34,146 nucleotides of DNA, taken from Planctomycetales bacterium (GTDB taxonomy: Bacteria > Planctomycetota > Planctomycetia > Pirellulales > Pirellulaceae). The position numbers were made by a program, and so were the translations under genes. Where the stretch lies: the NCBI GenBank assembly GCA_020426845.1, contig JAGQPF010000123.1:1-34146 (forward strand), written 5' to 3'. Below, one piece after another: positions 3,622-34,146 of the stretch (within the stretch, counting starts at the first letter, position 1; each line of letters opens with the position of its first letter). The notes beneath the pieces are model-generated. The model ran no database searches. It saw only the letters and a program-made list of their open reading frames with translations, and was not told where the DNA came from.

Positions 3622-3903
3622 AGCGACTCCTTGTGCGATTGTCGTGACGAGAACGAAAGTCAGAGAGAATTCGGCTCGGCCACGGATTTATTTGCGGGAA
3701 TCGGCCACGATCCGCAAGGCGAGGGGCCCGCGCGAGCTCGCCCCCGCGACCGAACGTCCTGGAACGGGCTGGCATCACGGCAGAAATCATAGCGAACATC
3801 GCCGATTTCGGCCACACAAACGCCACGGCGCGCCTTCTGTAGGGCTGGTGCGATTGAATTGAATGTCTACCGGCGAGAGCAACGCACCTCGGGCTCGCGC
3901 CCG

Positions 3904-3937
3904 AGGCTAACAACTGTCGCCCCTGCCGGGGCTGGAG
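3904..3937. repeat. Family-C REP-like element, single copy (GGCTAACaaCTGTCGCCCCTGCCGGGGC)
   Basis: It matches the GGCTA(A/C)CGTCTGTCGCCCCTnnnGGGGC core seen at 22170-23000, 26996-27318 and 27938-27975, and contains the hairpin gcccct-gcc-ggggc. Confidence 0.5.
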
Positions 3938-22228: not shown

Positions 22229-22690
22229 CCCCAGGCGCAAGCCGGCGCAAGCCCGTGGAGTGGCGCGGGCCGCGCGCAAAAAGCCCCGGAGGGCCGGAGG
22301 GGCGACAGACGGTAGCCGTGGGCGCAAGCCGGCGCAAGCCCAGGGAATGAGGCGCGGGCCGCGCGCAAAAAGCCCCGGAGGGGCGACAGACGGTAGCCTT
22401 GGGCGCAAGCCCAAGGAATGAGGCGCGGGCCGCGCGCAAAAAGCCCAGGAGGGGCGACAGACGTTTGCCCTGGGCGCGAGCCGGCGCAAGCCCAGGGAAT
22501 GAGGCCCGGGCCGCGCGCAAAAAGCCCCGGAGGGGCGACAGACGGTAGCCTTGGGCGCAAGCCCAAGGAATGAGGCGCGGGCCGCGCGCAAAAAGCCCCG
22601 GAGGGGCGACAGACGGTAGCCCTGGGCGTAAGCCGGCGTAAGCCCAGGGAATGAGGCGCGCAAGCCGCGCAGCGCCGGCGGCTCGCGCGG
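22170..22690. repeat. Family-C tandem array, orientation 1: about 6 copies of a 66-78-bp unit (GCGCGGGCCGCGCGCAAAAAGCCCCGGAGGGGCGACAGACGGTAGCCnnGGGCGCAAGCC[GGCGCAAGCC]CAGGGAATGAG)
   Basis: The repetition is visible in the sequence. Each unit holds two palindromes (gcgcgg-g-ccgcgc; gcccc-gga-ggggc) flanked by an A5 run, which reads as a hairpin + U5 on the minus strand. Peptides repeat in the shadow ORFs on both strands. Confidence 0.9.
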
Positions 22691-22735
22691 TTCAATGAAC
22701 ACGTCGCCCCGCAAGGCAGAGCCAACTCGCACAAC

Positions 22736-23000
22736 TCCACGGGCTTGCGCCCGTGGCTACCTTCTGTCGCCCCTTGCGGGGCTGGTGCGCGTGGTGTGCG
22801 CGACTCCACGGGCTTGCGCCCGTGGCTACCTTCTGTCGCCCCTTGCGGGGCTGGTGCGCGTGGCGTGCGCGACTCCACGGGCTTGCGCCCGTGGCTACCT
22901 TCTGTCGCCCCTTGCGGGGCCTGGTGCGCGTGGTGTGCGCGACTCCACGGGCTTACGCCCGTGGCTACCTTCTGTCGCCCCTTGCGGGGCCGGTGCGCAT
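22736..23000. repeat. Family-C tandem array, inverted orientation: 4 copies of a 69-bp unit (CACGGGCTTGCGCCCGTGGCTACCTTCTGTCGCCCCTTGCGGGGCTGGTGCGCGTGGTGTGCGCGACTC)
   Basis: The units are roughly the reverse complement of those in 22170-22690 and lie about 45 bp from them. This creates an approximately 800-bp quasi-palindromic region between mug and the propeller gene. Confidence 0.9.
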
Positions 23001-23083
23001 CGTTGCTACTGACTTGCATCCGCCGCAGGCTCGGCGGAAAATACAAATCCAAGCAATTTCCCTCCATTCGCTCAGGCCTACCC

Positions 23084-24307
23084 ATGTCGCGACGCGCACT
23101 CTTTGCCACCTCACTTGCCCTGCTGGCGTCCGGTCTCCTTCATTCCTCACACGTCAGTGGCGAGCAGCCGTGGACGCAGTGGCGTGGCCCGCATGGCGAC
23201 GGGCACTCGGACGCCCCGGCGCTGCTTCGTTGGAATGACGAGAACGTGACCTGGAAGACGGCATTGCCGGGGCTCGGCCAATCGTCGCCGGTCGTTTGGG
23301 GCGACCGTATCTTCTTGACCGGCGCCGAGAACGATGGCGCCAAGCGGATCGTGTTCTGCGTCTCGCGGAAAAACGGCAAACTGCTCTGGCAGCAGACCGC
23401 CTGGACGGGCGACGCGGAGAAGACGCACCAGATGAATCGTTGGGCGTCCGCGACGTGCGCCACCGACGGCGAGCGGGTCGTGGCCTTCTTTGGCCGCGGC
23501 GGGCTGCACTGTTATTCGATGGACGGCACGCGGCTCTGGTCGCGCGAGCTGGGCGATTTTGAAAACGTCTGGGGCACTGCCGCGTCGCCGATCATCGCGG
23601 GCGAGCTCGTGATTCAAAATTGTGACGCCGAGGACAGCGGGTCATGCCTGGTCGCCCTGAACAAGGAGACGGGGGCCGAGGTGTGGCGCACGGCCCGCGA
23701 GCAACTGCGTGGCTGGTCAACGCCGGTCGTGGTGGCCAACGGTGACAAGCAAGAGCTGGTGCTCAACGGCGAGACCGGAGTGTTTGGCTACGACTTGGCC
23801 AGCGGCGCCCAACTCTGGTTCAGCAAGGGCGACACCGGCCGCGGCACCCCCACCGTGACGCCGACGGGCGACGGGCTGCTGGTCGTCGTCAACGGACGGC
23901 CTGGCGACATGTTCGCCGTGCAAGCGGACGGCAAGGAAGTCTGGCGGACCAAGCGCAAAGGCGGCCGCGACTTGCCCTCGCCGATCGTGCTCGACGGCCA
24001 GGTGATCGTCGTCAGCTTGCGCCCCGGCACCGCGACCAGCTACATCGCCTCCAGTGGCAAGGAGACCGCTCGGCTGCGGCTGGACGGCAGCTTCTCCGCG
24101 TCGCCGATCGCCGTCTCGGGACACGCGATCATCCCCAACGAAGATGGCTTGGTCTATGTGCTCAAGGCCGGCGACCAGGGCGTGGAGGTGGTTTCGAAGA
24201 ACAAGATCACCTTGCGAGCGGAAAACGAGATCTTCCGCGCTTGCGTGACGCCGCTGGAGGACGGACTGCTGCTGCGGTCCGACCAGACGCTGTACCTGAT
24301 CCAGTAA
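23084..24307 (+). CDS. secreted PQQ-like beta-propeller repeat protein (BamB-like fold)
   Basis: The signal peptide is MSRRALFATSLALLASGLL. Repeated …DG.(L/V)W… blades (GKLLWQQT, GTRLWSREL, GAEVWRT, GAQLWFS, GKEVWRT) are present. The listed 520-aa ORF is over-extended through the repeat array. Confidence 0.8.
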   Translation: MSRRALFATSLALLASGLLHSSHVSGEQPWTQWRGPHGDGHSDAPALLRWNDENVTWKTALPGLGQSSPVVWGDRIFLTGAENDGAKRIVFCVSRKNGKLLWQQTAWTGDAEKTHQMNRWASATCATDGERVVAFFGRGGLHCYSMDGTRLWSRELGDFENVWGTAASPIIAGELVIQNCDAEDSGSCLVALNKETGAEVWRTAREQLRGWSTPVVVANGDKQELVLNGETGVFGYDLASGAQLWFSKGDTGRGTPTVTPTGDGLLVVVNGRPGDMFAVQADGKEVWRTKRKGGRDLPSPIVLDGQVIVVSLRPGTATSYIASSGKETARLRLDGSFSASPIAVSGHAIIPNEDGLVYVLKAGDQGVEVVSKNKITLRAENEIFRACVTPLEDGLLLRSDQTLYLIQ

Positions 24308-24319
24308 GGTGACTGCAAC

Positions 24320-24775
24320 ATGTCACGACCTGCCCCCGAGCCGGTGGACGTCAGCCGCCTGCGCGAGCTTGCTTCGGCGGTCGTCGCGGCCGACCGCTTT
24401 CCCATGCTGGCCACGATCGACGGCGACCAGCCGCGCGTGCGCCCGGTGTCGCCCGTGCGCACCGACGGCTTCACCGTGTACATCGCCAATCTCCGCAGCT
24501 ACCACAAGACGGGCGAGATCGCGGCCAACCCCAACGTCGAGCTGTGCTATCTCGACGACCGCCACGACCAAGTGCGAATCACCGGACGCGCCGAGCCGCT
24601 GACCGACCGACCGCTGCTCGAGCAGATCTGGGAGGACAACCCGCTGCTCCGCCAGTACCTCGGCTCGCTCGACAACCCCGAATTGATCGTCTACCGAGTC
24701 GAGCCCCTGGCGGTCCGATTCATGCGAGAGTGGGCGTTGGAGTATCTGGAAGTCCCCTTAAATATCGATCAGTAG
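24320..24775 (+). CDS. pyridoxamine 5'-phosphate oxidase-like FMN-binding split-barrel protein
   Basis: At 151 aa, …RVRPVSPVRTDGFTVYIANLRSYHKTGEIAANPNVELCY… has the PNPOx-family pattern. It lies 12 bp after the propeller gene, with an AAGGTGA RBS. Confidence 0.7.
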   Translation: MSRPAPEPVDVSRLRELASAVVAADRFPMLATIDGDQPRVRPVSPVRTDGFTVYIANLRSYHKTGEIAANPNVELCYLDDRHDQVRITGRAEPLTDRPLLEQIWEDNPLLRQYLGSLDNPELIVYRVEPLAVRFMREWALEYLEVPLNIDQ

Positions 24776-24842
24776 GGTGCAAGGCCTATAGAGCTTCGCC
24801 GGTTTTGACCCGATACCGATTCACTCCGGCGGGTTTTCGGTC

Positions 24843-25325
24843 ATGCCTAAACGATTTTCGATCTCCCAACTTCAACTTTGGATCTTGGCTGCGGCAGTAC
24901 TGGCAGCGATCCTCGTTGCACTTCCGTGTTCGCCACTGGCAGGCGCCGGAGCAGCCATCTTTGTCGCAATGTTTGGCACCGCCGATCTGCTTCTTCTTTC
25001 GATATCGTCCCAAAGCAAAGGGCTCGCCATTTCTTACACGGCGTTTTCCCTCTCCGTGTCACTTGTTGTGGCATTCCTGCTTTGCTTCCTCATGCCACCG
25101 AGCTTCGCTCCAACTGCTTCGAACCTCCTTGACGCTCTCGGCCATACTTTGACGTTTGTCTTGGGCTACTGGTTGTTTTTTTGCCTACTGACACTCGCAA
25201 GCTTCACTGCGGCCATTTGCAGTTGGAATCAGTCGAAGATCGCCAAGTGGCTCGTGCTGGCCAACACGCCCGGCATATTCTTGGCTGGGTGGTTGGTGGC
25301 CGTCGTTATCTACGAAAGTAGTTAG
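24843..25325 (+). CDS. hypothetical integral membrane protein (4 predicted TM helices) in a low-GC islet
   Basis: It is 160 aa with four hydrophobic stretches. Local GC is about 50-52%, against about 65% in the neighbours. Confidence 0.55.
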   Translation: MPKRFSISQLQLWILAAAVLAAILVALPCSPLAGAGAAIFVAMFGTADLLLLSISSQSKGLAISYTAFSLSVSLVVAFLLCFLMPPSFAPTASNLLDALGHTLTFVLGYWLFFCLLTLASFTAAICSWNQSKIAKWLVLANTPGIFLAGWLVAVVIYESS

Positions 25326-25431
25326 TCGGCCGCCGCTGGTTTGTACGTCAGGGCTAGGAGAGCAGTGAGTGCGTTTCATCGCTCCAGGGCTTGGGCATTG
25401 GAGTACTACGACGTGAAGCTCTGAGCCACAC

Positions 25432-26730
25432 TCAAGCCTTGGCGACGTCCTCCAAGAACTCGGTGAGCACGTCGCGGCTGACGTGCGGCATGACGACGAC
25501 GTGCGAGTAAAGCTCGGACTTGCCGTCGCGTTCCAGATGCATGGTCGCCAGCGAGTACTTCTTCACCAGTTCGGCGGACGGGCAGCGGAAGTAGACGGTG
25601 TTCGACAACGCATTGGCGCGTGTCGCCCCCAGTTGCGGGAACCGCGACCGGAGTTGTTCGAGCAAGTGCTCGGCATTGGCGAGCATCAGCTTGGCGTCGG
25701 CAACTTGTCGGGCGCGCGCCGGTGGCGTGGTGAAGTAGAAGAACTCCGCCGGCTTCACCGCGTCGCGCGAGCAAGTGATCGTGCCCGGCACGTGGTCAAT
25801 GTACTCCGGATTGTGGATGCGACTGAATCGATCGTTGAACTCGTCGTACACACTTCGCCGCATCACGTACAAGCCTGCCGGCGAGGGAAAGCCGAAAAAC
25901 TTGTGGCAGGAGACCGCGATCGAGTCGTAGCGATCCGCGCCCGCGACTCGCTGCAGCACCTCGGCCGCGTGGTCGGTGAACGGCAGGTAGCCGCCGAACA
26001 ACGCCGCGTCGAGGTGTAGGTAGGACGGGTGGCCGGCGAGCTGGCGCTGAATCGCGTCGACATTGTCGATCGCGCCTTTAAAGGTTGTGCCGATTGTCGC
26101 CACCACCAGCGCCGGCGCCTCCCGATGACGCGCGAGCTGAGCGGCAAGGTCGTCGGGATCCATGGCGCCGTCGGCGAGCGTGCCCACCTCCACCGTCTCC
26201 ATTCCCAACAGATCTCGCAAGATCTGCACCGAGTAATGAGCCTCGCGAGTGAAATAGGCATTGGGCTTCAGACCGGTGCGGCCCTCGAGCAACGTTCGCC
26301 CCATATACATCCCGTGCATGTTGCTGTCCGTGCCGCTGTGAGAAAGAAAGCCCCACGTGTCGTCCTCGGGAAATCCGAACAGCTTGCCGAACTCACGGAT
26401 CGTCGCCGCCTCGTAATCGTGTGTGTTGTAGGGGATCGGACTCTCCTTGAACGGATTGCCCACATTGTTGAAGGCGAAGGCGTCCACGCCGGCGGCAAAC
26501 AGTTGTTTTCGCCAGGCGAAAAACTCGGCAGGCGGAGAGTTCATGTTGATCGGATAGCCCAGCAAGCGATCCTTGACTGCGATCAACTCGGCGCGGCGGC
26601 GCAATCCCTCCGGGGTCAGATCGTCTCCGTACGCCAATTGCTCGTGCCCCGGAAAGCGACAACCGGAGGCGACAGCCAACGCGCCGATTCCGCCCATGCC
26701 CATGCCCAAAAACCGTCGTCGCGAAAGCAT
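25432..26730 (-). CDS. PLP-dependent group II decarboxylase, a histidine-decarboxylase (HdcA) homologue, with a twin-arginine/lipoprotein-type signal peptide
   Basis: It aligns along its length with Gram-negative histidine decarboxylase. GFLSHSGTDSNMHGMYMGR, TIGTTFKGAIDNVDAIQRQL and the PLP-lysine motif SCHKFFG all match. The N-terminus is MLSRRRFLGMGMGGIGALAVASGC. A strong GGTGAGGAG RBS is present. Confidence 0.85.
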   Translation of the reverse strand: MLSRRRFLGMGMGGIGALAVASGCRFPGHEQLAYGDDLTPEGLRRRAELIAVKDRLLGYPINMNSPPAEFFAWRKQLFAAGVDAFAFNNVGNPFKESPIPYNTHDYEAATIREFGKLFGFPEDDTWGFLSHSGTDSNMHGMYMGRTLLEGRTGLKPNAYFTREAHYSVQILRDLLGMETVEVGTLADGAMDPDDLAAQLARHREAPALVVATIGTTFKGAIDNVDAIQRQLAGHPSYLHLDAALFGGYLPFTDHAAEVLQRVAGADRYDSIAVSCHKFFGFPSPAGLYVMRRSVYDEFNDRFSRIHNPEYIDHVPGTITCSRDAVKPAEFFYFTTPPARARQVADAKLMLANAEHLLEQLRSRFPQLGATRANALSNTVYFRCPSAELVKKYSLATMHLERDGKSELYSHVVVMPHVSRDVLTEFLEDVAKA

Positions 26731-26995
26731 GACAAGCTCCTCACCTAAAGGCCCAAGTGACGTGGAATCCTTCGGATGACGGGAAAAGGGGTTCCCCGGA
26801 TGGAGAAGGTGCTTTTCCTCGTCTTGTTAGAAAACAAGCAATTCTCGCGCCGGCAGGCAATGTCGAAGCGACCGTTGGAACCCGGCCTTGCAGTCAACAC
26901 GTTGAAGGTGGATTCGATTGCCAGTTGGCGCCTAGACGTCGCGAAGCGTCACGGCAGAACACAACCGCGCTGTGCGTTCACGCACGCCACGGCTC

Positions 26996-27318
26996 CACGG
27001 GCTCGCGCCCGTGGCTAACGTCTGTCGCCCCTCCGGGGCTTTTTAGCGTAATGAACTTGAGCGAAGTTCGACCGGTTTGCGCCACGTTTCCACAGGCGCG
27101 CTCGCAGATTCACGGGCGCGCACGCCGATCCACGGGCTCACGCCCGTGGCTAACGTCTGTCGCCCTTGGGGGCTTTTTCAGCGTTATGAACTTGAGCGAA
27201 GTTCGACCGGTTTGCGCCGCATTTCCACGGGCGCGCACGCAGATACATGGGCGCGCACGCCACGCGCACAAGCCCCGAAGGGGCGACAGACGTTAGCCAC
27301 GGGCGCGAGCGCGTGGAA
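26996..27318. repeat. Family-C composite repeats: two copies of an approximately 135-bp unit plus one inverted core copy
   Basis: cacgggctcgcgcccgtggctaacgtctgtcgcccctccggggctttttagcgtaatgaacttgagcgaagttcgaccggtttgcgcc… repeats at 26996 and 27131. The inverted core agccccgaaggggcgacagacgttagccacgggcgcgagcgcgtgg is at 27270-27318. Each unit has a hairpin + T5. Confidence 0.85.
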
Positions 27319-27398
27319 CCGCGCGCAACCCCGTTGATCCATCCACGCGACTGCAATTGCTCACTGATGCGCGCGAGTTCATGGAATCAGCGCAAACG

Positions 27399-27875
27399 TT
27401 AGCCGCCCGTCAGGGAGGACATGAGAAATCCCAGGCTGACCCAGCCTCCTTGTCCGATCCCCGCGAGCGCGAACACCATCTGCCCGACGGCGGCGACAGC
27501 GAGTGTCATTTGGCCCAGAGCTAACGGCGCGACGGCGAGCTGCCCGATGGCAAGAATTCGCCCGGTGGCAAGTTGGCCGATGCCGATATAGCCCTGTGCC
27601 ATCTGGCCAATCGCAATTCCGCCGACGGCGAACTGGCCGATCGCGACCACGCCTCGAGCCACTTCTCGCTTGCCCGTTTCGGGATTAATCCCCCGAATGA
27701 TCTGCAACATCGGCAGACCGAAAAGAGAAGTTTCGGAGGTGTACTCCCGGTAGGTCGCCCCATCGTAGTGCACGAACTCGCGAATGGTGCCGTGGGCTGT
27801 GCGCGTCACCGTAAATTTGGGATGCGAGACCAGATACGACTGCTTGACGTGCGAATTGCTGCGTTTGACGACCAT
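27399..27875 (-). CDS. hypothetical protein with a C-terminal hydrophobic heptad (A/G)IGQ(L/M/F)A repeat domain
   Basis: It probably starts at MVVKRSN (AGGAGAA RBS); the listed ORF begins 50 codons upstream inside repeat DNA. The C-terminal 90 aa read AIGQFAVGGIAIGQMAQGYIGIGQLATGRILAIGQLAVAPLALGQMTLAVAAVGQMVFALAGIGQGG. Confidence 0.6.
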   Translation of the reverse strand: MVVKRSNSHVKQSYLVSHPKFTVTRTAHGTIREFVHYDGATYREYTSETSLFGLPMLQIIRGINPETGKREVARGVVAIGQFAVGGIAIGQMAQGYIGIGQLATGRILAIGQLAVAPLALGQMTLAVAAVGQMVFALAGIGQGGWVSLGFLMSSLTGG

Positions 27876-27937
27876 AAGTTCTCCTGTGGCGAGCCAACTT
27901 CGCCAAGCTGCTTTCCCGCTTTTCCCCGAGCTCGCGC

Positions 27938-27975
27938 TCGAGGCTAACGTCTGTCGCCCCTGCAGGGGCTTTGCT
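27938..27975. repeat. Family-C REP-like element, single copy (GGCTAACGTCTGTCGCCCCTGCAGGGGC)
   Basis: It has the same core as the arrays. It is followed by G-tracts. Confidence 0.6.
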
Positions 27976-28007
27976 CGTGGGGGAGCGCGGGGGGAGCGCG
28001 GGGGGGC
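27966..28007 (+). other. G-quadruplex-forming motif (G4-N10-G5-N5-G6-N5-G7) in the divergent intergenic region
   Basis: The sequence is caGGGGctttgctcgtGGGGGagcgcGGGGGGagcgcGGGGGGGcac. It includes the direct repeat GGGGGAGCGCG twice. Confidence 0.35.
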
Positions 28008-28431
28008 ACGCGATTCCACGGCCACGGCATCCTCCCCATTCGCCGACGGGATTCAATTCTTGGCTGCCTGTTTCGGATTTCGTCAATGATTCCCTTCGCT
28101 GCCTCTAGGACCGATAGTGGCACCGCCAACGTGGGCGTGAGATAGTGGGGGGTCCCCATTGCCCCATACCCATGCCTCGCCTCTGACAAGGCATGCCGAA
28201 CACCTCATCCGGCAATCGGCCCCACACGTGGCGGCACGACGAAGACCATTCCCATTGCCAGTGGGGCTTTTTAAACAGGCTGTTACCCGCATGAATGCTC
28301 GCTCCACCATCTATACTTCCACGAAACGTTGCCGTCAACGCTTGCCGTTGCTACGCCCGCATGTCCGTGCTTCCGGGGCACGTCGTTCGGCCACGATGCA
28401 TTACGGAATCTCTCCCCATGCACAAGCGAGC

Positions 28432-29985
28432 ATGTCAACGCTCGTGTTGGGGGTCGTAGTTTGTCCGTTGCTGGCGTTGCTCGTGGCTGCCATGGCCAAC
28501 GCCGACGTAGTCAAGCGGCCGAACATTCTGTTGGCCATCTCCGACGACCAGTCGTTTCCTCATGCCGGCGCCTATGGTGACCGAGCAGCGGTGACTCCCC
28601 ATTTCGACCGCTTGGCCAAACAAGGCGTGTTGTTTTGGCGAGCCTATGCGGGCTCTCCCGGCTGCAGTCCGTCGCGAGCCGCACTGTTGACGGGGCGTCA
28701 TCATTGGCAGGTCGAGCATGCTGGCACCCACGGCAGCTCCTTCTCCGCTCGCTTTGCCACCTACCCCGACCTGCTCGAAGCGGCCGGCTACTTTGTCGGC
28801 CACACCGGCAAAGGCTGGGGTCCGGGGGTGCCCGGGCCGGGTCGAGAAAGCAATCCGGCGGGGCCCGCTTTCAACAAACTTCGCTTAAAGCCGCCGCACT
28901 CGGGCTTTCGCAACACCGACTACGCAGCCAACTTCGCGGACTTCCTGAGCCAGCGTCCCGAGGGTGCGCCGTTCTGCTTCTGGTACGGCGGCTCCGAGCC
29001 GCATCGCGGCTTCACTGCGGGCTCGGGACTCAAGGACGGCGGCGATCCCGACAAAGTCTCCGTGCCGGGCTATCTGCCCGACGTGCCCGAGGTCCGTTCC
29101 GACCTGCTCGACTACGCGCGCGAAGTGCAGCACTTCGACGAACACCTGGGCCGGATGGTGAAGCTGCTCGAGGAGCGAGGCGAGCTCGACAATACGTTGA
29201 TCATCGTGACCAGTGACAACGGCATGGCATTTCCGCGCGCCAAGGCGAATTGTTATGAGCATGGTGTGCACGTGCCGCTGGCCATCAGCTGGCCTCAACA
29301 AGTCGGCGGCGGACGGGAGATTCGCGACTTGGTTGGCTTCGTCGATCTCGCGCCGACCATCCTCGCAGCGGCCGGCCTGCCGGGCCTTGCGAGTCGGTCC
29401 AACATGAGCGGCAGCAGTCTGTTGGACTTGCTGACCTCCGACCGCACTGGCCTGGTCGACGCACAGCGTCGCGCCTACGCGGGGCGCGAACGGCATTCGT
29501 CGTCGCGCTACAACAACTCGGCCTATCCGCAGCGTTGCATGCGGAGCGATCGCTGGCTGCTGGTGCATAACTTCCGCCCCACTCGGTGGCCGGCCGGCAC
29601 GCCCTGGAAGTTTGAGGGCAGCCGCGCGGGTCCGCCGCACGGTGGCTACCACGACATCGATGCGTGCCCCACCCTGAGCTTGCTGGTGGAGCGCCGAAGC
29701 GATCCCGATTTCCGACGATTCCTGGAGCTCGCCGTGGCCAAGCGCCCCGAATTCGAATTGTTCGATGTCGAAGCGGATCCCGATTGCCTCGAGAATCTCG
29801 CCAGCCATCCGGAGCACCGATCGCTGTTGGCGCGTCTGCAATCGGAGTTGCACGAGTACCTGCGCCGCACCGGCGATCCGCGCGCCTTGGATGGAGGCGA
29901 GGTGTTCGAAACCTACGCGCGGCTTAGCGGATCGATCCGTCGTTTTCCCTCCGCTCGCGAAGAGGCGGAGCGCACGGCGCCTTAG
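28432..29985 (+). CDS. secreted sulfatase (formylglycine-dependent arylsulfatase family)
   Basis: The signal peptide is MSTLVLGVVVCPLLALLVAAMANA. The FGly motif is SPGCSPSRAALLTGR, with the metal-binding pattern AISDDQ. An alternative ATG at 28396 is possible. The listed ORF starts farther upstream. Confidence 0.85.
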   Translation: MSTLVLGVVVCPLLALLVAAMANADVVKRPNILLAISDDQSFPHAGAYGDRAAVTPHFDRLAKQGVLFWRAYAGSPGCSPSRAALLTGRHHWQVEHAGTHGSSFSARFATYPDLLEAAGYFVGHTGKGWGPGVPGPGRESNPAGPAFNKLRLKPPHSGFRNTDYAANFADFLSQRPEGAPFCFWYGGSEPHRGFTAGSGLKDGGDPDKVSVPGYLPDVPEVRSDLLDYAREVQHFDEHLGRMVKLLEERGELDNTLIIVTSDNGMAFPRAKANCYEHGVHVPLAISWPQQVGGGREIRDLVGFVDLAPTILAAAGLPGLASRSNMSGSSLLDLLTSDRTGLVDAQRRAYAGRERHSSSRYNNSAYPQRCMRSDRWLLVHNFRPTRWPAGTPWKFEGSRAGPPHGGYHDIDACPTLSLLVERRSDPDFRRFLELAVAKRPEFELFDVEADPDCLENLASHPEHRSLLARLQSELHEYLRRTGDPRALDGGEVFETYARLSGSIRRFPSAREEAERTAP

Positions 29986-29999
29986 CCACCGCAATTGAG

Positions 30000-31199
30000 T
30001 TATCGAGTTGGATTCTCGTACCAGAACAATCCGAGGTTGTCGCGTTCCTCACAGGTCATTAGATCGAGATCGCCGTCCTCGTCGATGTCGATCGCTTGAA
30101 TCAGGTCAAACTTGACGCCGCGCTCGCCGCTGATGTCGTGTGTCTTCCAACCCTCGGCGGTTCGCTCGAGCCAAGCGGCGCCACGGTGCATTCGATTGCC
30201 GCCATTGTTGGCGGTGTGCATGAGATCGGGCTTCCCGTCCAGATTCACGTCCGCAATGGCGACAGCCTTGCCATTGGGCGCGGCGAATGGATTGGGAATC
30301 GTCGTCGTGGCCCACTGCTGCCCAGCGGCGTCAGTTTGACGCGAGTGCAGAATGACCCCATTGCGCGTGGCTGTCACGATGTCGAGCTGGTCGTCGCCAT
30401 CGAAGTCTCCTGCGTCGAGAAACATCACTTCCTTGTCCTCGCCGGCGACGCGCTGCTCGCGCCACGGCTTGCCTTGTCGCACTGCCTCGGTGCCCGGGTT
30501 TTCCAGCCACAACACGCCACGATGCGCGCCCTTCCGGTCGCTCACGAGCACATCCAGGTCGCCGTCACGATCGAAGTCCAACGGATGGAGCGACATCACC
30601 CAGCCTGCTTGGTAAAGCGACTGCAGCCGATAGGCCGTCAGCTCACGTCGCCGACTCTTCTCGGACGGCCCCATGAGCAAGGACACCGTGGCGCCAGTTC
30701 CCTTGCTAGCGACGATCATCTCCGGGCCCGGCCGACCATCAAGCTCCAGCGGCAGAGCAAACATCCACATTTGGTTGCCCGTCGCAGCGGGAATCGCCTC
30801 GGTTTTCCATGCGTCCGGGTCGAGCAACTTGTCGCGAAGCGGCGCCCAATGGACAAACAACATGCGGCTGCGTCCCTCCGTCGAGCTCAACACATCAATG
30901 TTGCCATCGAGATCCAGGTCGGCGAACACGGCATCCTCGGGCGAAGGCACTTGGCCCGCTGTAACGGCCGGCCACGGTTGCTGACGCTCGGCGCGAGCTG
31001 GCTGGAGATAGACGCGGATGACTCCGCCCTCCTCCCAGCCGCAGACCAGATCTTGCCGACTGTCGCCGTTCACGTCCGCTAGTCGCACGCCGTCGGCCCC
31101 GCGCGACGACGCGTCGATGGTATGCCGCCGCCACTGTGCTTCGGCTCGAGGCAGGAAGAGGCACACACTCAGCGCGCACATCACCAACAGCTTCAACAT
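30000..31199 (-). CDS. secreted FG-GAP/VCBS repeat beta-propeller protein
   Basis: A good signal peptide MLKLLVMCALSVCLFLPRAEA is followed by Ca-binding-type DxDxDG loops (DVNGDSRQDLV, DLDGNIDVL, DFDRDGDLDVLV, DFDGDDQLDIV, DVNLDGKPDLM, DIDEDGDLDLM). The listed ORF extends 107 codons upstream of this Met. Confidence 0.8.
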   Translation of the reverse strand: MLKLLVMCALSVCLFLPRAEAQWRRHTIDASSRGADGVRLADVNGDSRQDLVCGWEEGGVIRVYLQPARAERQQPWPAVTAGQVPSPEDAVFADLDLDGNIDVLSSTEGRSRMLFVHWAPLRDKLLDPDAWKTEAIPAATGNQMWMFALPLELDGRPGPEMIVASKGTGATVSLLMGPSEKSRRRELTAYRLQSLYQAGWVMSLHPLDFDRDGDLDVLVSDRKGAHRGVLWLENPGTEAVRQGKPWREQRVAGEDKEVMFLDAGDFDGDDQLDIVTATRNGVILHSRQTDAAGQQWATTTIPNPFAAPNGKAVAIADVNLDGKPDLMHTANNGGNRMHRGAAWLERTAEGWKTHDISGERGVKFDLIQAIDIDEDGDLDLMTCEERDNLGLFWYENPTR

Positions 31200-31913
31200 C
31201 GGCCATCGAGGGAATCGAGTGTGCTGCGGGCGCAGGGCAGGGGAGTTGATATCAGTTGCAAGAAAGGACCTGGCGGAATGGCGTTCACACCTCGCCGCGA
31301 TCGGTTTGACCGGCTGCACGCTTCGTTGATCTCTCACGGAGGCACCAAGACACGGAGTTTGATGGAAAAAGAAACTTGCCGAGCATCCCCAAACGTCGCG
31401 AAGAAAGTCCAGCGTTGAAACGTGAGAAATTTTCTCGGAGCGACGTTGTGGGCACTTCGCCGCCAGAGGTTTGACCGGCTTGGGGTCCTGACTTGAGCGA
31501 AAAACGATGAGGAAAGGCAATTATGCGGATTAGTGGGGCAAGAGTGGGGATTATAGCGGCGGCAAAGCCGATTTGAGGCGATTTCCCGAGGCTCAACATG
31601 GGTTTTCGACCTAGGTTTTCGACATCGCTTGCTCCCTTCACTTTCAGTTTGAGCCGATTTGGCGCGTCGTTCACGCCCCTGGTCGGCTTGTTCCGCATCT
31701 GCCGATTCCGGTGAGCTGCGGACGGAGCGGGTCGTGTCGATGATCAGGCGTTCGCCACTCGCGATGGATCAGTACTTCTGACACCCATCCTGCTTCCGCA
31801 TCGCACGCAATCCCGCTTCCATTTGCTGAACAGGATGGGGTGTGCAGGCCGGAGCGACGGCTCTGGTCCGCAAGCGCTCTCTTTGACGCTCCCCCAGACC
31901 CAGAGGCCGCCCC

Positions 31914-34146
31914 CGTGAGTCAACAACCGTTCGACGATCTCTTTGCCGACAGCCCGACCAATCGGAACACCTCCTCCAATCGGAACAATCAGCAACCCAA
32001 CAGCCCCACCTTAAAGGTCGACTCCCTCGAGCCTCGCGTGCTGCTCTCGGGGACGTGCCTCCCCGGCGCTGACTTGGACTATGACGTCGAACCGCAAGGC
32101 GAGGTGTTCGATGGCGCCGCATACGGAGACGATGCCGACTTCCTGGGACACGACGGACACGTCGCCGACAGTGCCCACCACGGAGGTTATGGCAAGCACG
32201 ATGGTGGCGGACATCATGACTTGGGCCTGAACGACTATGACGACGGCGGCCACGATCAGCCCGTGGCCAAACACGGCGGACATGATGGCGGCGACGGACA
32301 CAAAGTCGACGATGGCGGCCATCACGCCAATGCGAAGCAGTACGGCGGCGATAGCCACGACAGCCACGACAAGCCGCATCAAGAAGTGCATGCCAAGTAC
32401 GGCGGTGACGACGGCGATGGCGACGGCCACGACAGCGGCAAACATCAGCCGGTCGCACAGAAATATGACGATCATGGCGATGATGGCGCCAACGAGAGTC
32501 ACGAAAAGCCCCACCAAGAGGCGCATGCGAAGTATGGACACGGTGGCGGCGATGACGGTGGCGACCATGACAAGCCCCACCAAGGAGTGCATGCCAAGCA
32601 CGGCAGTGACGACGGCGGCGGCGATGACCATGACGGCGGCGGCAAATATCAGCCGGTCGAGCAGAAGCATGATGACGGCGGCGACCACGATAAGCCCCAC
32701 CAGGAAGTGCATGCCAAGTACGACGGTGGCGACGACGGTGGCGATGACCATGACGGCGGCGACAAATATCAGCCGGTCGAGCAGAAGCATGATGACGGCG
32801 GCGACCACGACAAGCCCGAGGTGCATGCCAAGTACGCTGGCACCGACGACGGTGGCGACGACAATGACGGCGGCGACAAATATCAGCCGGTCGAACAGAA
32901 GCATGATGACGGCGGCGACCACGACAAGCCCGAGGTGCATGCTAAGTACGCCGGTACCGACGACGGTGGCGATGGCCATGACGGCGGCGACAAGTATCAG
33001 CCGGTCGAGCAGAAGCATGATGACGGCGGCGACCATGACAAGCCCCACCAAGAAGTGCATGCCAAGTACGACAGTGGCGACGACGGTGGCGATGACCATG
33101 ACGGCGGCGACAAATATCAGCCGGTCGAGCAGAAGCATGACGACGGTGGCGATGGCCATGGCGGCGGCGACAAGTATCAGCCGCTCGAGCAGAAGCATGA
33201 TGACGACTTCAAAGTCAGTCACGACAAGTCGCAGCAAGAAGCCAATTACGGCGGCGGTGACGACAGTCCGTCGGATGCGACTTGGGCCGCCGACGTTAGC
33301 ACCACTGACGACTCAACCGACTCAGGCACTGTAGCGACAGAGGGAACCGACGACGGCAACCCGGGATCCAGTAACGACACCTACGGCGGAGATTCGCAAT
33401 CGCAATCTTCCTGGGTGTCCGATCATTCGGCAGCAGACGACACGGACAACGGCGAGGACACTCCTGCCGGGTATGGTGTCACGATCACCGAATCAGGCCC
33501 CTCGACTCCCGCGACGGACAGTTCGACAACGAGCAATGCTGAAGGTTACGGAACCGACGATTCAAAGGTGACCAACCACAGTGATGAAGTTAACGGCTCC
33601 GACGACAACGGCTGGGCAGCTGCCACCGACGACAGTAGCAGCGGAACCAATGACACCACCTACGGTTCCGGCGACACGGAAGTGATCGACGAAGGCGGCG
33701 ATGACAGCTCCGACGACACCGATTGGACGGTGGACGACATCGCTGACACCGACGATGGTGGAATCGACGACTCCGGAGGTTCCACCTACGGCGCCGGCGA
33801 CTCGGACGTGACCAACGACGATGGCGACGACACCGGTTGGACAGCGGACAACGTCGTCGCTGACACTGACGACAGCGGCAGCGACGCTGGCGAAACGGAC
33901 GTGACCAACGACACTAGTTGGACTGCGGACGACTCGGCTGGCACCGACGACAGCGGAAACTCCGACTCCGGTGATTCGACTTACGGCGCCGGCGAAACGG
34001 ACGTGACCAACGACGTCGGCGACGACAGCTCCGACGACACCGGCTGGACCGCGGACGACTCGGCTAGCACCGACGACACCGACGACGGTGGAAGCGATGA
34101 CTCCGGTGATTCGACCTATGGCGCCGGCGACTCGGACGTGACCAAC
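31914..34146 (+). CDS. partial giant repetitive protein: LEPR-XLL-like N-terminal motif, His/Asp-rich 37-40-aa tandem repeats, then acidic Asp/Thr/Ser/Gly repeats; 3' end beyond the window
   Basis: One frame stays open from the GTG at 31914 (in-frame TGA at 31884) to the window end (about 744 codons). The N-terminus carries …TLKVDSLEPRVLLSGT…. About 8 repeats of DKYQPVEQKHDDGGDHDKPHQEVHAKYDGGDDGGDDHDGG follow, then GWTADDSAGTDDSGNSDSGDSTYGAGETDVTND-type repeats. The listed ORFs 32011..33237(-) and 32237..33334(+) are shadow frames of these repeats. Confidence 0.75.
32290..33240 (+). repeat. Intragenic tandem coding repeats (111-120-nt units, about 8 copies, the last five more than 90% identical at DNA level)
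   Basis: GACAA(A/G)TATCAGCCGGTCGAGCAGAAGCATGATGACGGCGGCGACCACGACAAGCCC… recurs at about 32644, 32764, 32875, 32989, 33109 and 33169. Confidence 0.85.

Follow-up and report, generated by a model that had tools for sequence, protein, structure and literature searches.

What kind of protein is encoded at the broken end of a planctomycete contig, where an open reading frame (ORF) made up largely of two acidic tandem-repeat arrays, the first rich in His, Asp, Gly and Lys and the second in Asp, Ser and Thr, runs off the assembled sequence? Here, we address this question for contig JAGQPF010000123.1 of a Planctomycetales metagenome-assembled genome (MAG; GenBank assembly GCA_020426845.1), the 34,146 nucleotides (nt) of which constitute the window that was analysed. 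A first-pass annotation, made from the sequence alone, had described a giant His/Asp-rich repeat protein with a LEPR-XLL-like motif near its N terminus and a Ca-binding second array. Our analysis revealed that the frame is a real protein-coding gene and that its product is a member of the LEPR-XLL family. The visible part of this protein is best read, with a probability of roughly 0.55, as a disordered, polyanionic N-terminal spacer of a surface or secreted protein that would be exported without the Sec pathway. The LEPR-XLL family is known; what is new here are the orphan repeat modules carried by one of its members.

The coding status of the frame is supported by several features. An in-frame stop lies upstream, at 31741, and the frame is thereafter open to the last base of the contig, 34146, a run of 794 stop-free codons. 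ATG is absent anywhere in frame, the 744-residue product being devoid of Met, with a single Cys and 3 Arg, and only two starts in frame precede the LEPR motif, GTG 31840 (769 codons) and GTG 31915 (744 codons), the latter with the sequence AGAGG 8 nt upstream. GC content at codon positions 1/2/3 is 0.70/0.44/0.72, as against 0.67/0.52/0.74 in the neighbouring sulfatase gene. The repeats themselves respect the frame: unit lengths of 120, 114 and 60 nt and a 6-nt indel encoding HQ differ throughout by multiples of three, and the same holds for the start-to-start spacings in the second array (195, 135, 321, 117, 15, 63, 111, 114, 81, 126 and 279 nt). Among the four near-identical units of the first array (U1–U4), the HQ codon pair is the sole indel, and variable columns are distributed over the three codon positions as 3/4/10, i.e., 10 of the 17 fall at third positions. 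Furthermore, the frame stays open over ~1.5 kb beyond these four units, and the LE.R.LL motif occurs a single time across the six frames of the window, namely, in this frame. Thus, the LEPR-XLL match, the codon-phased indels and spacings, the excess of third-position variation and the neighbour-like GC content by codon position identify the frame as a real coding sequence of the Planctomycetales MAG, and the open frame proposed in the first-pass annotation is confirmed.

Two shadow ORFs overlie the repeat array, one of 408 residues on the minus strand (32011–33237) and one of 365 residues in the +2 frame (32237–33334), such that, together with the main plus-strand frame, three frames are open there. 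Both shadow ORFs result from the periodicity and GC richness of the sequence, and gene callers could mistake them for genes.

Membership in the LEPR-XLL family follows from the match to NCBIfam model NF012209.1 (LEPR-8K), a hidden Markov model (HMM) of 24 positions with a curated cut-off of 17 bits. The 744-residue product scores 20.8 bits (E-value 2.1e-4) and its N-terminal 115 residues alone score 24.6 bits (E-value 1.3e-5), and the motif is N-terminal whichever start is used, occupying residues 33–53 from GTG 31915 or 58–78 from GTG 31840. By HMM score and by position, therefore, the protein is a LEPR-XLL family member, and the earlier recognition of SLEPRVLLSG as such a motif was correct. 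Its description as a planctomycete motif was too narrow, however, given that the domain has been reported in proteins of Vibrio, Limnohabitans and Chlorobium chlorochromatii (PMC10868602; PMC9611531; bioRxiv 10.64898/2026.03.19.712371).

The first 60 residues form a polar N terminus that holds this motif. No hydrophobic segment was found in the product, the top 19-residue Kyte–Doolittle mean being 0.43, at the LEPR motif itself. From GTG 31840, two Arg residues are followed by only ~8 semi-hydrophobic residues; the N terminus is polar from both starts, and Kyte–Doolittle hydropathy yielded no Sec or Tat signal peptide with a hydrophobic core, in agreement with the first-pass view that a classical signal peptide is lacking. 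The published LEPR-XLL cases are few, range from ~8,000 to 37,000 residues, have no Sec signals and, in two instances, are associated with type-1-secretion-like features. Specifically, a Vibrio protein of ~8,000 residues carries C-terminal RTX and serralysin domains (PMC10868602), whereas Cag_663 (36,806 residues) and Cag_665 (20,647 residues) of C. chlorochromatii have N-terminal LEPRxLL domains without known transport signals and adjoin sapC/tolC-type genes (bioRxiv 10.64898/2026.03.19.712371); a Limnohabitans protein is likewise annotated as LEPR-XLL (PMC9611531). RTX or cation-binding beta-helix regions are a feature of the LEPR-XLL proteins in this literature (PMC10868602; bioRxiv 10.64898/2026.03.19.712371). 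By analogy, we infer that the planctomycete protein may also leave the cell by a non-Sec route, in keeping with its very acidic isoelectric point (pI), its scarcity of Cys and the absence of a Sec signal. The combination of an acidic pI, a single Cys and no signal peptide is compatible with a type-1-secretion substrate and not diagnostic of one.

The first array is most regular at its centre. Over residues ~61–242, His/Asp/Gly/Lys-rich copies gain in regularity along the stretch, the older copies being anchored by H[DE]K[PS] at residues 151, 196 and 218 and by KHQPVAQKYDD at residue 176. Residues 243–458 comprise four units of 38–40 residues (GKYQPVEQKHDDGGDHDKPHQEVHAKYDGGDDGGDDHDGG and variants), followed by a half unit of 20 residues and a final, degenerate copy. 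Pairwise nucleotide identity is 91–95% among U1–U4, the copies flanking them drop to 73–87%, and the last unit (33169–33288) is 76–85% identical to the other units of the array. Tandem Repeats Finder detected a period of 120 nt, repeated 5.1 times with 88% matches (score 890), with a 60-nt sub-period over 32959–33205, and the degenerate pattern K[YH]QP..QK[HY]DD has 7 matches in the window, as against 0.00 expected from shuffles. The first-pass count of about 8 repeats is reached only if degenerate copies are included (four good units, one half unit and three or four degenerate ones). Similarly, the claim that the last five repeats are more than 90% identical applies to the central copies and fails for the last unit; the near-identity of the central copies is consistent with recent expansion or homogenisation. 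The combination of homogeneous central copies with decaying edge copies is the usual signature of unequal exchange, by which this array appears to be evolving. The longest exact repeat within it is 67 nt, and the array can thus be resolved with ordinary assembler k-mers and 150-nt reads.

The composition of this array is less extreme than initially claimed. The consensus unit contains 5 His in 40 residues (12.5%) and 13 Asp or Glu (32.5%), and the His block as a whole (335 residues, net charge −57) contains 43 His, 22.5% Asp and 21% Gly; His thus accounts for 13% of the block and, over the partial product as a whole, for 7%, rather than for the ~20% stated in the first-pass annotation. Five positions, His16, Lys18, Glu22, Ala25 and Tyr27, do not vary over seven units, older ones among them. 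Ten H...H spacings were counted. The core, HDKPHQEVHAKY, sets His at i, i+4 and i+8 (H-x3-H-x3-H), and the HQ indel removes one core His in two of the four best-conserved units.

The units of the second array follow the consensus WTADDSADTDDSGSDDSGDSTYGAGDTDVTNDxGDDSSxDT, with conserved W and TYG anchors, and its DNA repeat families are 61–87% identical at the nucleotide level, i.e., looser than the His array. An acidic array rich in Thr and Ser is thus real, as annotated, and yet it is not DxDxDG-like: there is one D.D.DG, one GG.G.D and no D.[DN].[DN]G..D (thrombospondin type-3) motif, counts that are at the level of noise. Apart from this single GG.G.D match, the visible part of the protein carries no RTX domain, with no match to HemolysinCabind, the C terminus lying beyond the contig end. 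At E ≤ 10, neither the whole protein nor any block searched separately matched a Pfam family: there was no Dockerin_1, no dehydrin K-segment or His-rich LEA family and, for the whole protein and the Asp/Ser/Thr block alone, no TSP_3; in NCBIfam, the LEPR-XLL match was the only one. The thrombospondin type-3 or dockerin-like Ca-binding identity assigned to this array is therefore not supported. The contig ends exactly in frame, and its final 27 nt (34120–34146) duplicate 33790–33816 without a mismatch; it follows from this terminal copy that the break in the assembly falls within the Asp/Ser/Thr array. Giant size would be an expectation from family membership, by analogy with the published proteins, with 744–769 residues present on the contig.

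Searches for relatives of the two arrays came back empty across very large collections. The whole product gave no match at E ≤ 1e-3 in a word-indexed protein search, its N-terminal 83 residues had no three words in common with any of 5.8 billion clusters, and an exact 43-mer from the N terminus was absent from the genome and metagenome contig collections searched. Likewise, tblastn found no relative on plasmids, the JGI metagenome contigs searched did not contain the degenerate DNA pattern of the repeat core (with the seven matches in the window as a positive control), and no relative was detected in the PDB by sequence or by repeat-unit profiles, the only matches there, a glyoxalase (E 0.45) and a metallothionein (E 1), being rejected as noise. 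The sole phmmer match among 1.84 billion representatives, P0001 (E 5.5e-6), is a membrane protein unrelated to this one, with an Asn/Asp/Gly repeat of another kind, TKAQSEQGRNDAGNDNDTGS, and was set aside as compositional. Judged from these sequence comparisons, both arrays are orphan repeats, which is not very surprising for fast-evolving, low-complexity sequence.

The pI of the product is 4.05, its net charge (Lys + Arg − [Asp + Glu]) is −156 over 744 residues, and its grand average of hydropathy is −1.49. The mean hydropathy of every block is far on the disordered side of the Uversky charge–hydropathy boundary, and AlphaFold2, run on the single sequence with no alignment, produced a mean predicted local distance difference test (pLDDT) score of 35 with no helix or strand. 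Thus, the visible region that follows the motif is probably intrinsically disordered.

In the reading that we favour, the two arrays, one after the other, would form a flexible, extended and highly charged spacer or brush, which would hold downstream functional domains away from the cell surface. Low-affinity, high-capacity binding of divalent cations would be a consequence of the chemistry of such a spacer, with Ca2+ and Mg2+ accommodated on carboxylates, and Zn2+, Ni2+ and Cu2+ on His/Asp clusters such as H-x3-H-x3-H; from the composition, metal binding of this kind is plausible. The array would grow and shrink in whole-codon units through unequal recombination or slippage, which would preserve the homogeneity of copies in the centre, with decay confined to those at the edges.

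Several observations weigh against this reading. Pfam and NCBIfam scans of the window identified no type 1 secretion system (T1SS) and no other secretion genes, and the position of the C terminus beyond the contig end places the size of the protein, any downstream domains and any C-terminal secretion signal out of view. Given that no homologues were found, function cannot be argued from conservation, and neither partial product is present in a collection of 15 billion proteins, although that of the neighbouring FG-GAP gene is. The omission of an alignment is in itself sufficient to lower AlphaFold2 confidence, so that the low pLDDT is weak evidence for disorder. Finally, the conserved W, TYG and KY anchors, along with the invariant His and Lys, hint at something more than a featureless spacer.

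Comparison with known systems helps to place the protein. With other LEPR-XLL proteins (NF012209; Cag_663, Cag_665 and the Vibrio protein of ~8,000 residues), it shares the N-terminal 24-residue motif, scoring above the cut-off, the lack of a Sec signal and a repetitive, acidic sequence. Unlike them, it is visible over 744 residues only, short of any C-terminal RTX, beta-helix or serralysin-type parts, and its His/Asp and Asp/Ser/Thr arrays, without a detectable homologue, have not been seen described for any member of the family. The Ser-Asp stalks of the staphylococcal Sdr and Clf adhesins, which are strict SD dipeptide repeats of variable copy number, serve as extended spacers in Gram-positive, Sec-exported, LPXTG-anchored proteins. 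These stalks resemble the planctomycete protein in being long, Asp/Ser-rich, low-complexity regions, whereas the units of the latter span 27–67 residues, bear W and TYG anchors and are located on the N-terminal side of the protein. Also without an N-terminal signal peptide are TRP32, TRP47 and TRP120 of Ehrlichia, type-1-secretion substrates with strongly acidic, Ser/Asp-rich, species-specific tandem repeats (PMC3417381); however, there is no sequence similarity, the TRPs are small effectors of an intracellular pathogen, and a dependence of the present protein on T1SS would be an analogy. The ZnuA loop, histidine-rich glycoprotein (PMC5372734) and dehydrins (PMC10358736) similarly combine His clusters next to Asp/Glu and Gly, disorder and HxxxH spacings, but they are not homologous to the His array, which has no Pfam dehydrin match and a lower density of His (13%). 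RTX, thrombospondin type-3 and dockerin repeats have in common with the arrays an acidic, Gly/Asp-rich and, for the arrays presumably, extracellular character, the defining motifs and HMMs of these repeats not being matched by the visible product. In terms of function, the Ehrlichia TRPs, the Ser-Asp stalks and the His/Asp-rich loops come closest, as analogues rather than homologues.

In bacteria, LEPR-XLL proteins count among the largest proteins. What the motif does is not established in the literature found, in which three papers mention it in passing and none deals with its function. A planctomycete member with a His-studded polyanion over its N-terminal 700+ residues would bring a module of a new type into the family, and the fragment is small and expressible enough to be usable in tests of metal or pH responsiveness. 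The practical value of the analysis lies mainly in the annotation, "LEPR-XLL domain-containing protein, partial"; the sequence itself is orphan, truncated and of low complexity, and the MAG that it comes from is fragmented. Caution is warranted with respect to the thrombospondin type-3/dockerin reading and the word "giant", neither of which is supported by the data.

Among the alternatives, the one that survives best, which we nevertheless consider unlikely, is that the His/Asp array is a dedicated metal-handling module, selected specifically to capture, buffer or store Zn, Ni, Cu or Co at the surface, with Ca bound by the Asp/Ser/Thr array; binding of metal would then be what the protein is for, rather than a side effect. 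The His, Asp and Gly content of the His block, the ten H...H spacings, the i, i+4, i+8 arrangement in the core, and the invariance of His16, Lys18 and Tyr27 in seven units, old degenerate ones included, would all be expected of such a module, and His/Asp-rich loops of ZnuA, histidine-rich glycoprotein and dehydrins do bind Zn, Ni and Cu. Yet, the HQ deletion has cost half of the four best-conserved units a His, and no metal transporter, metal chaperone or metalloregulator was found in the window with Pfam and NCBIfam, nor a Fur-box-like site. Moreover, the failure to find homologues means that there is no evidence of cross-species conservation of the His residues, and composition by itself does not set the array apart from any other acidic low-complexity region.

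Rather improbable is the second alternative, under which the second array, and perhaps also the first, would consist of divergent thrombospondin type-3-, dockerin- or RTX-like repeats, disordered without Ca and folding into a solenoid or rod outside the cell. RTX blocks of T1SS substrates behave in just this manner, being disordered without Ca and folding outside the cell. Aromatic and hydrophobic anchors recur at regular spacing (W ... TYGAG ... DVTN) among residues that are otherwise acidic, which speaks for such repeats, as do the RTX or cation-binding beta-helix regions of the LEPR-XLL proteins in the literature. Against this possibility are the absence of any Ca-repeat family at E ≤ 10 in Pfam and NCBIfam for the whole protein and for either block, the motif counts given above, and the repeat-unit profile search of the PDB, in which the best match was the metallothionein at E = 1. 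In addition, units of 27–67 residues fit a regular solenoid poorly, and no strands were predicted by AlphaFold.

A bolder proposal, and a long shot in our assessment, is that the His/Asp/Lys array is an undescribed, lineage-specific polyampholyte module, switchable by pH or metal, on a giant planctomycete surface protein. The His block has 43 His and a net charge of −57 over its 335 residues, so that protonation or loading with Zn, Ni or Cu would nearly neutralise it. If so, the module would enable a giant surface protein exported without Sec to respond to metal or pH by condensing or changing its extension, or would serve as a high-capacity buffer of extracellular metal, and the LEPR-XLL motif would mark an export or anchoring route. 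Least likely of all is a non-functional origin, whether as a decaying pseudogene, an open non-coding GC-rich satellite or a chimeric or collapsed repeat assembly: three open frames over the array, the lack of ATG, the absence of the product from the 15-billion-protein collection, the contig break in a repeat and the lack of an orthologue adjoining the FG-GAP gene in relatives are all outweighed by a LEPR-XLL domain that lies N-terminally, as expected, and in this frame alone, by repeat changes that keep codon phase and favour third positions, by ~1.5 kb of open frame outside the four near-identical units and by a His array whose longest exact repeat, 67 nt, ordinary k-mers and 150-nt reads can resolve.

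Table 1. Coordinates of the LEPR-XLL gene, its parts and its divergent neighbour in the window
Feature	Coordinates	Strand	Details
Partial coding sequence	31915..34146	+	744 codons; 5′ end present, 3′ end cut by contig end
LEPR-XLL domain, residues 33–53, LKVDSLEPRVLLSGTCLPGAD	32011..32073	+	NCBIfam NF012209.1 (LEPR-8K), profile positions 1–21 of 24
Older degenerate His/Asp/Gly/Lys copies, residues 91–242	32185..32640	+	73–91% nucleotide identity to central units
U1–U4, near-identical units of 120, 114, 114 and 120 nt (38–40 residues)	32641..33108	+	consensus DKYQPVEQKHDDGGDHDKP(HQ)EVHAKYDGGDDGGDDHDGG
Half unit DKYQPVEQKHDDGGDGHGGG	33109..33168	+	88–94% nucleotide identity to U1–U4
Degenerate terminal unit DKYQPLEQKHDDDFKVSHDKSQQEANYGGGDDSPSDATWA	33169..33288	+	76–81% nucleotide identity to U1–U4
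Asp/Ser/Thr-rich array, residues 457–744	33283..34146	+	seven W-anchored units, 27–67 residues; runs off contig
FG-GAP/VCBS protein	30000–31199	−	divergent neighbour; 100% identical to P0002 (MCA9174068.1, VCBS repeat-containing protein)

The surroundings of the gene are those of what looks like an ordinary planctomycete chromosome, with a GC content of ~62%. Pfam and NCBIfam identified in the window genes for a trypsin-HEAT protease, an ABC-F ATPase, GMP synthase, SurE, YmdB, the DNA polymerase III delta subunit, an AhpC/TSA–cytochrome c fusion, UDG, a PQQ_2 beta-propeller, PNPOx, a histidine-decarboxylase-like pyridoxal phosphate (PLP) enzyme, a sulfatase and the FG-GAP protein (Table 1). 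The real start of the last is probably ATG 31199, with the signal-peptide-like sequence MLKLLVMCALSVCLFLPRAEA. The divergent intergenic region between the FG-GAP and LEPR-XLL genes (31200–31914, ~715 bp) is unusually long. No sigma-70-like promoter or terminator was found at 31400–32100 and no Rfam family upstream of the LEPR-XLL gene; a single weak inverted repeat is located at 31652–31688.

The closest available relatives of the FG-GAP protein are encoded on two ENA contigs, L004 and L005 (64–66% identity), and more distant ones on three genome contigs, L001–L003 (28–49%). No LEPR-XLL or His/Asp ORF accompanies the FG-GAP gene on any of the five, indicating that the LEPR-XLL gene is lineage-specific or, at least, not syntenic. 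An LE.R.LL match in L004 is antisense to an S1-domain gene, with a stop ahead of the motif, and was rejected as spurious. Positions 1839–7248 of L005 show partial synteny with 22745–31199 of the window (PQQ_2, PNPOx, a small ORF, sulfatase and FG-GAP), with the FG-GAP gene in the opposite relative orientation and both the decarboxylase and the LEPR-XLL gene absent.

The PLP-dependent decarboxylase (25432–26730, minus strand) has as its best model histidine decarboxylase NF002748, at 220.7 bits, below the cut-off of 305; it is encoded ~5 kb from the gene for the His-rich protein, and no evidence of a link between the two was found. Rfam family RF01687 (Acido-Lenti-1 RNA, 46 nt) has ten matches above the gathering score, on both strands, at 22371–22991, 26995–27316 and 3887–3933. 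The matches form two tight clusters, one within the PQQ_2 ORF, where its 5′ end has a stretch of 71% GC, and the other inside an ORF at 26757–27296 that has no Pfam match, and they look like a clustered palindromic repeat element rather than a single small RNA gene. The host of these elements is a planctomycete, which lies outside the two phyla named in the title of the family.

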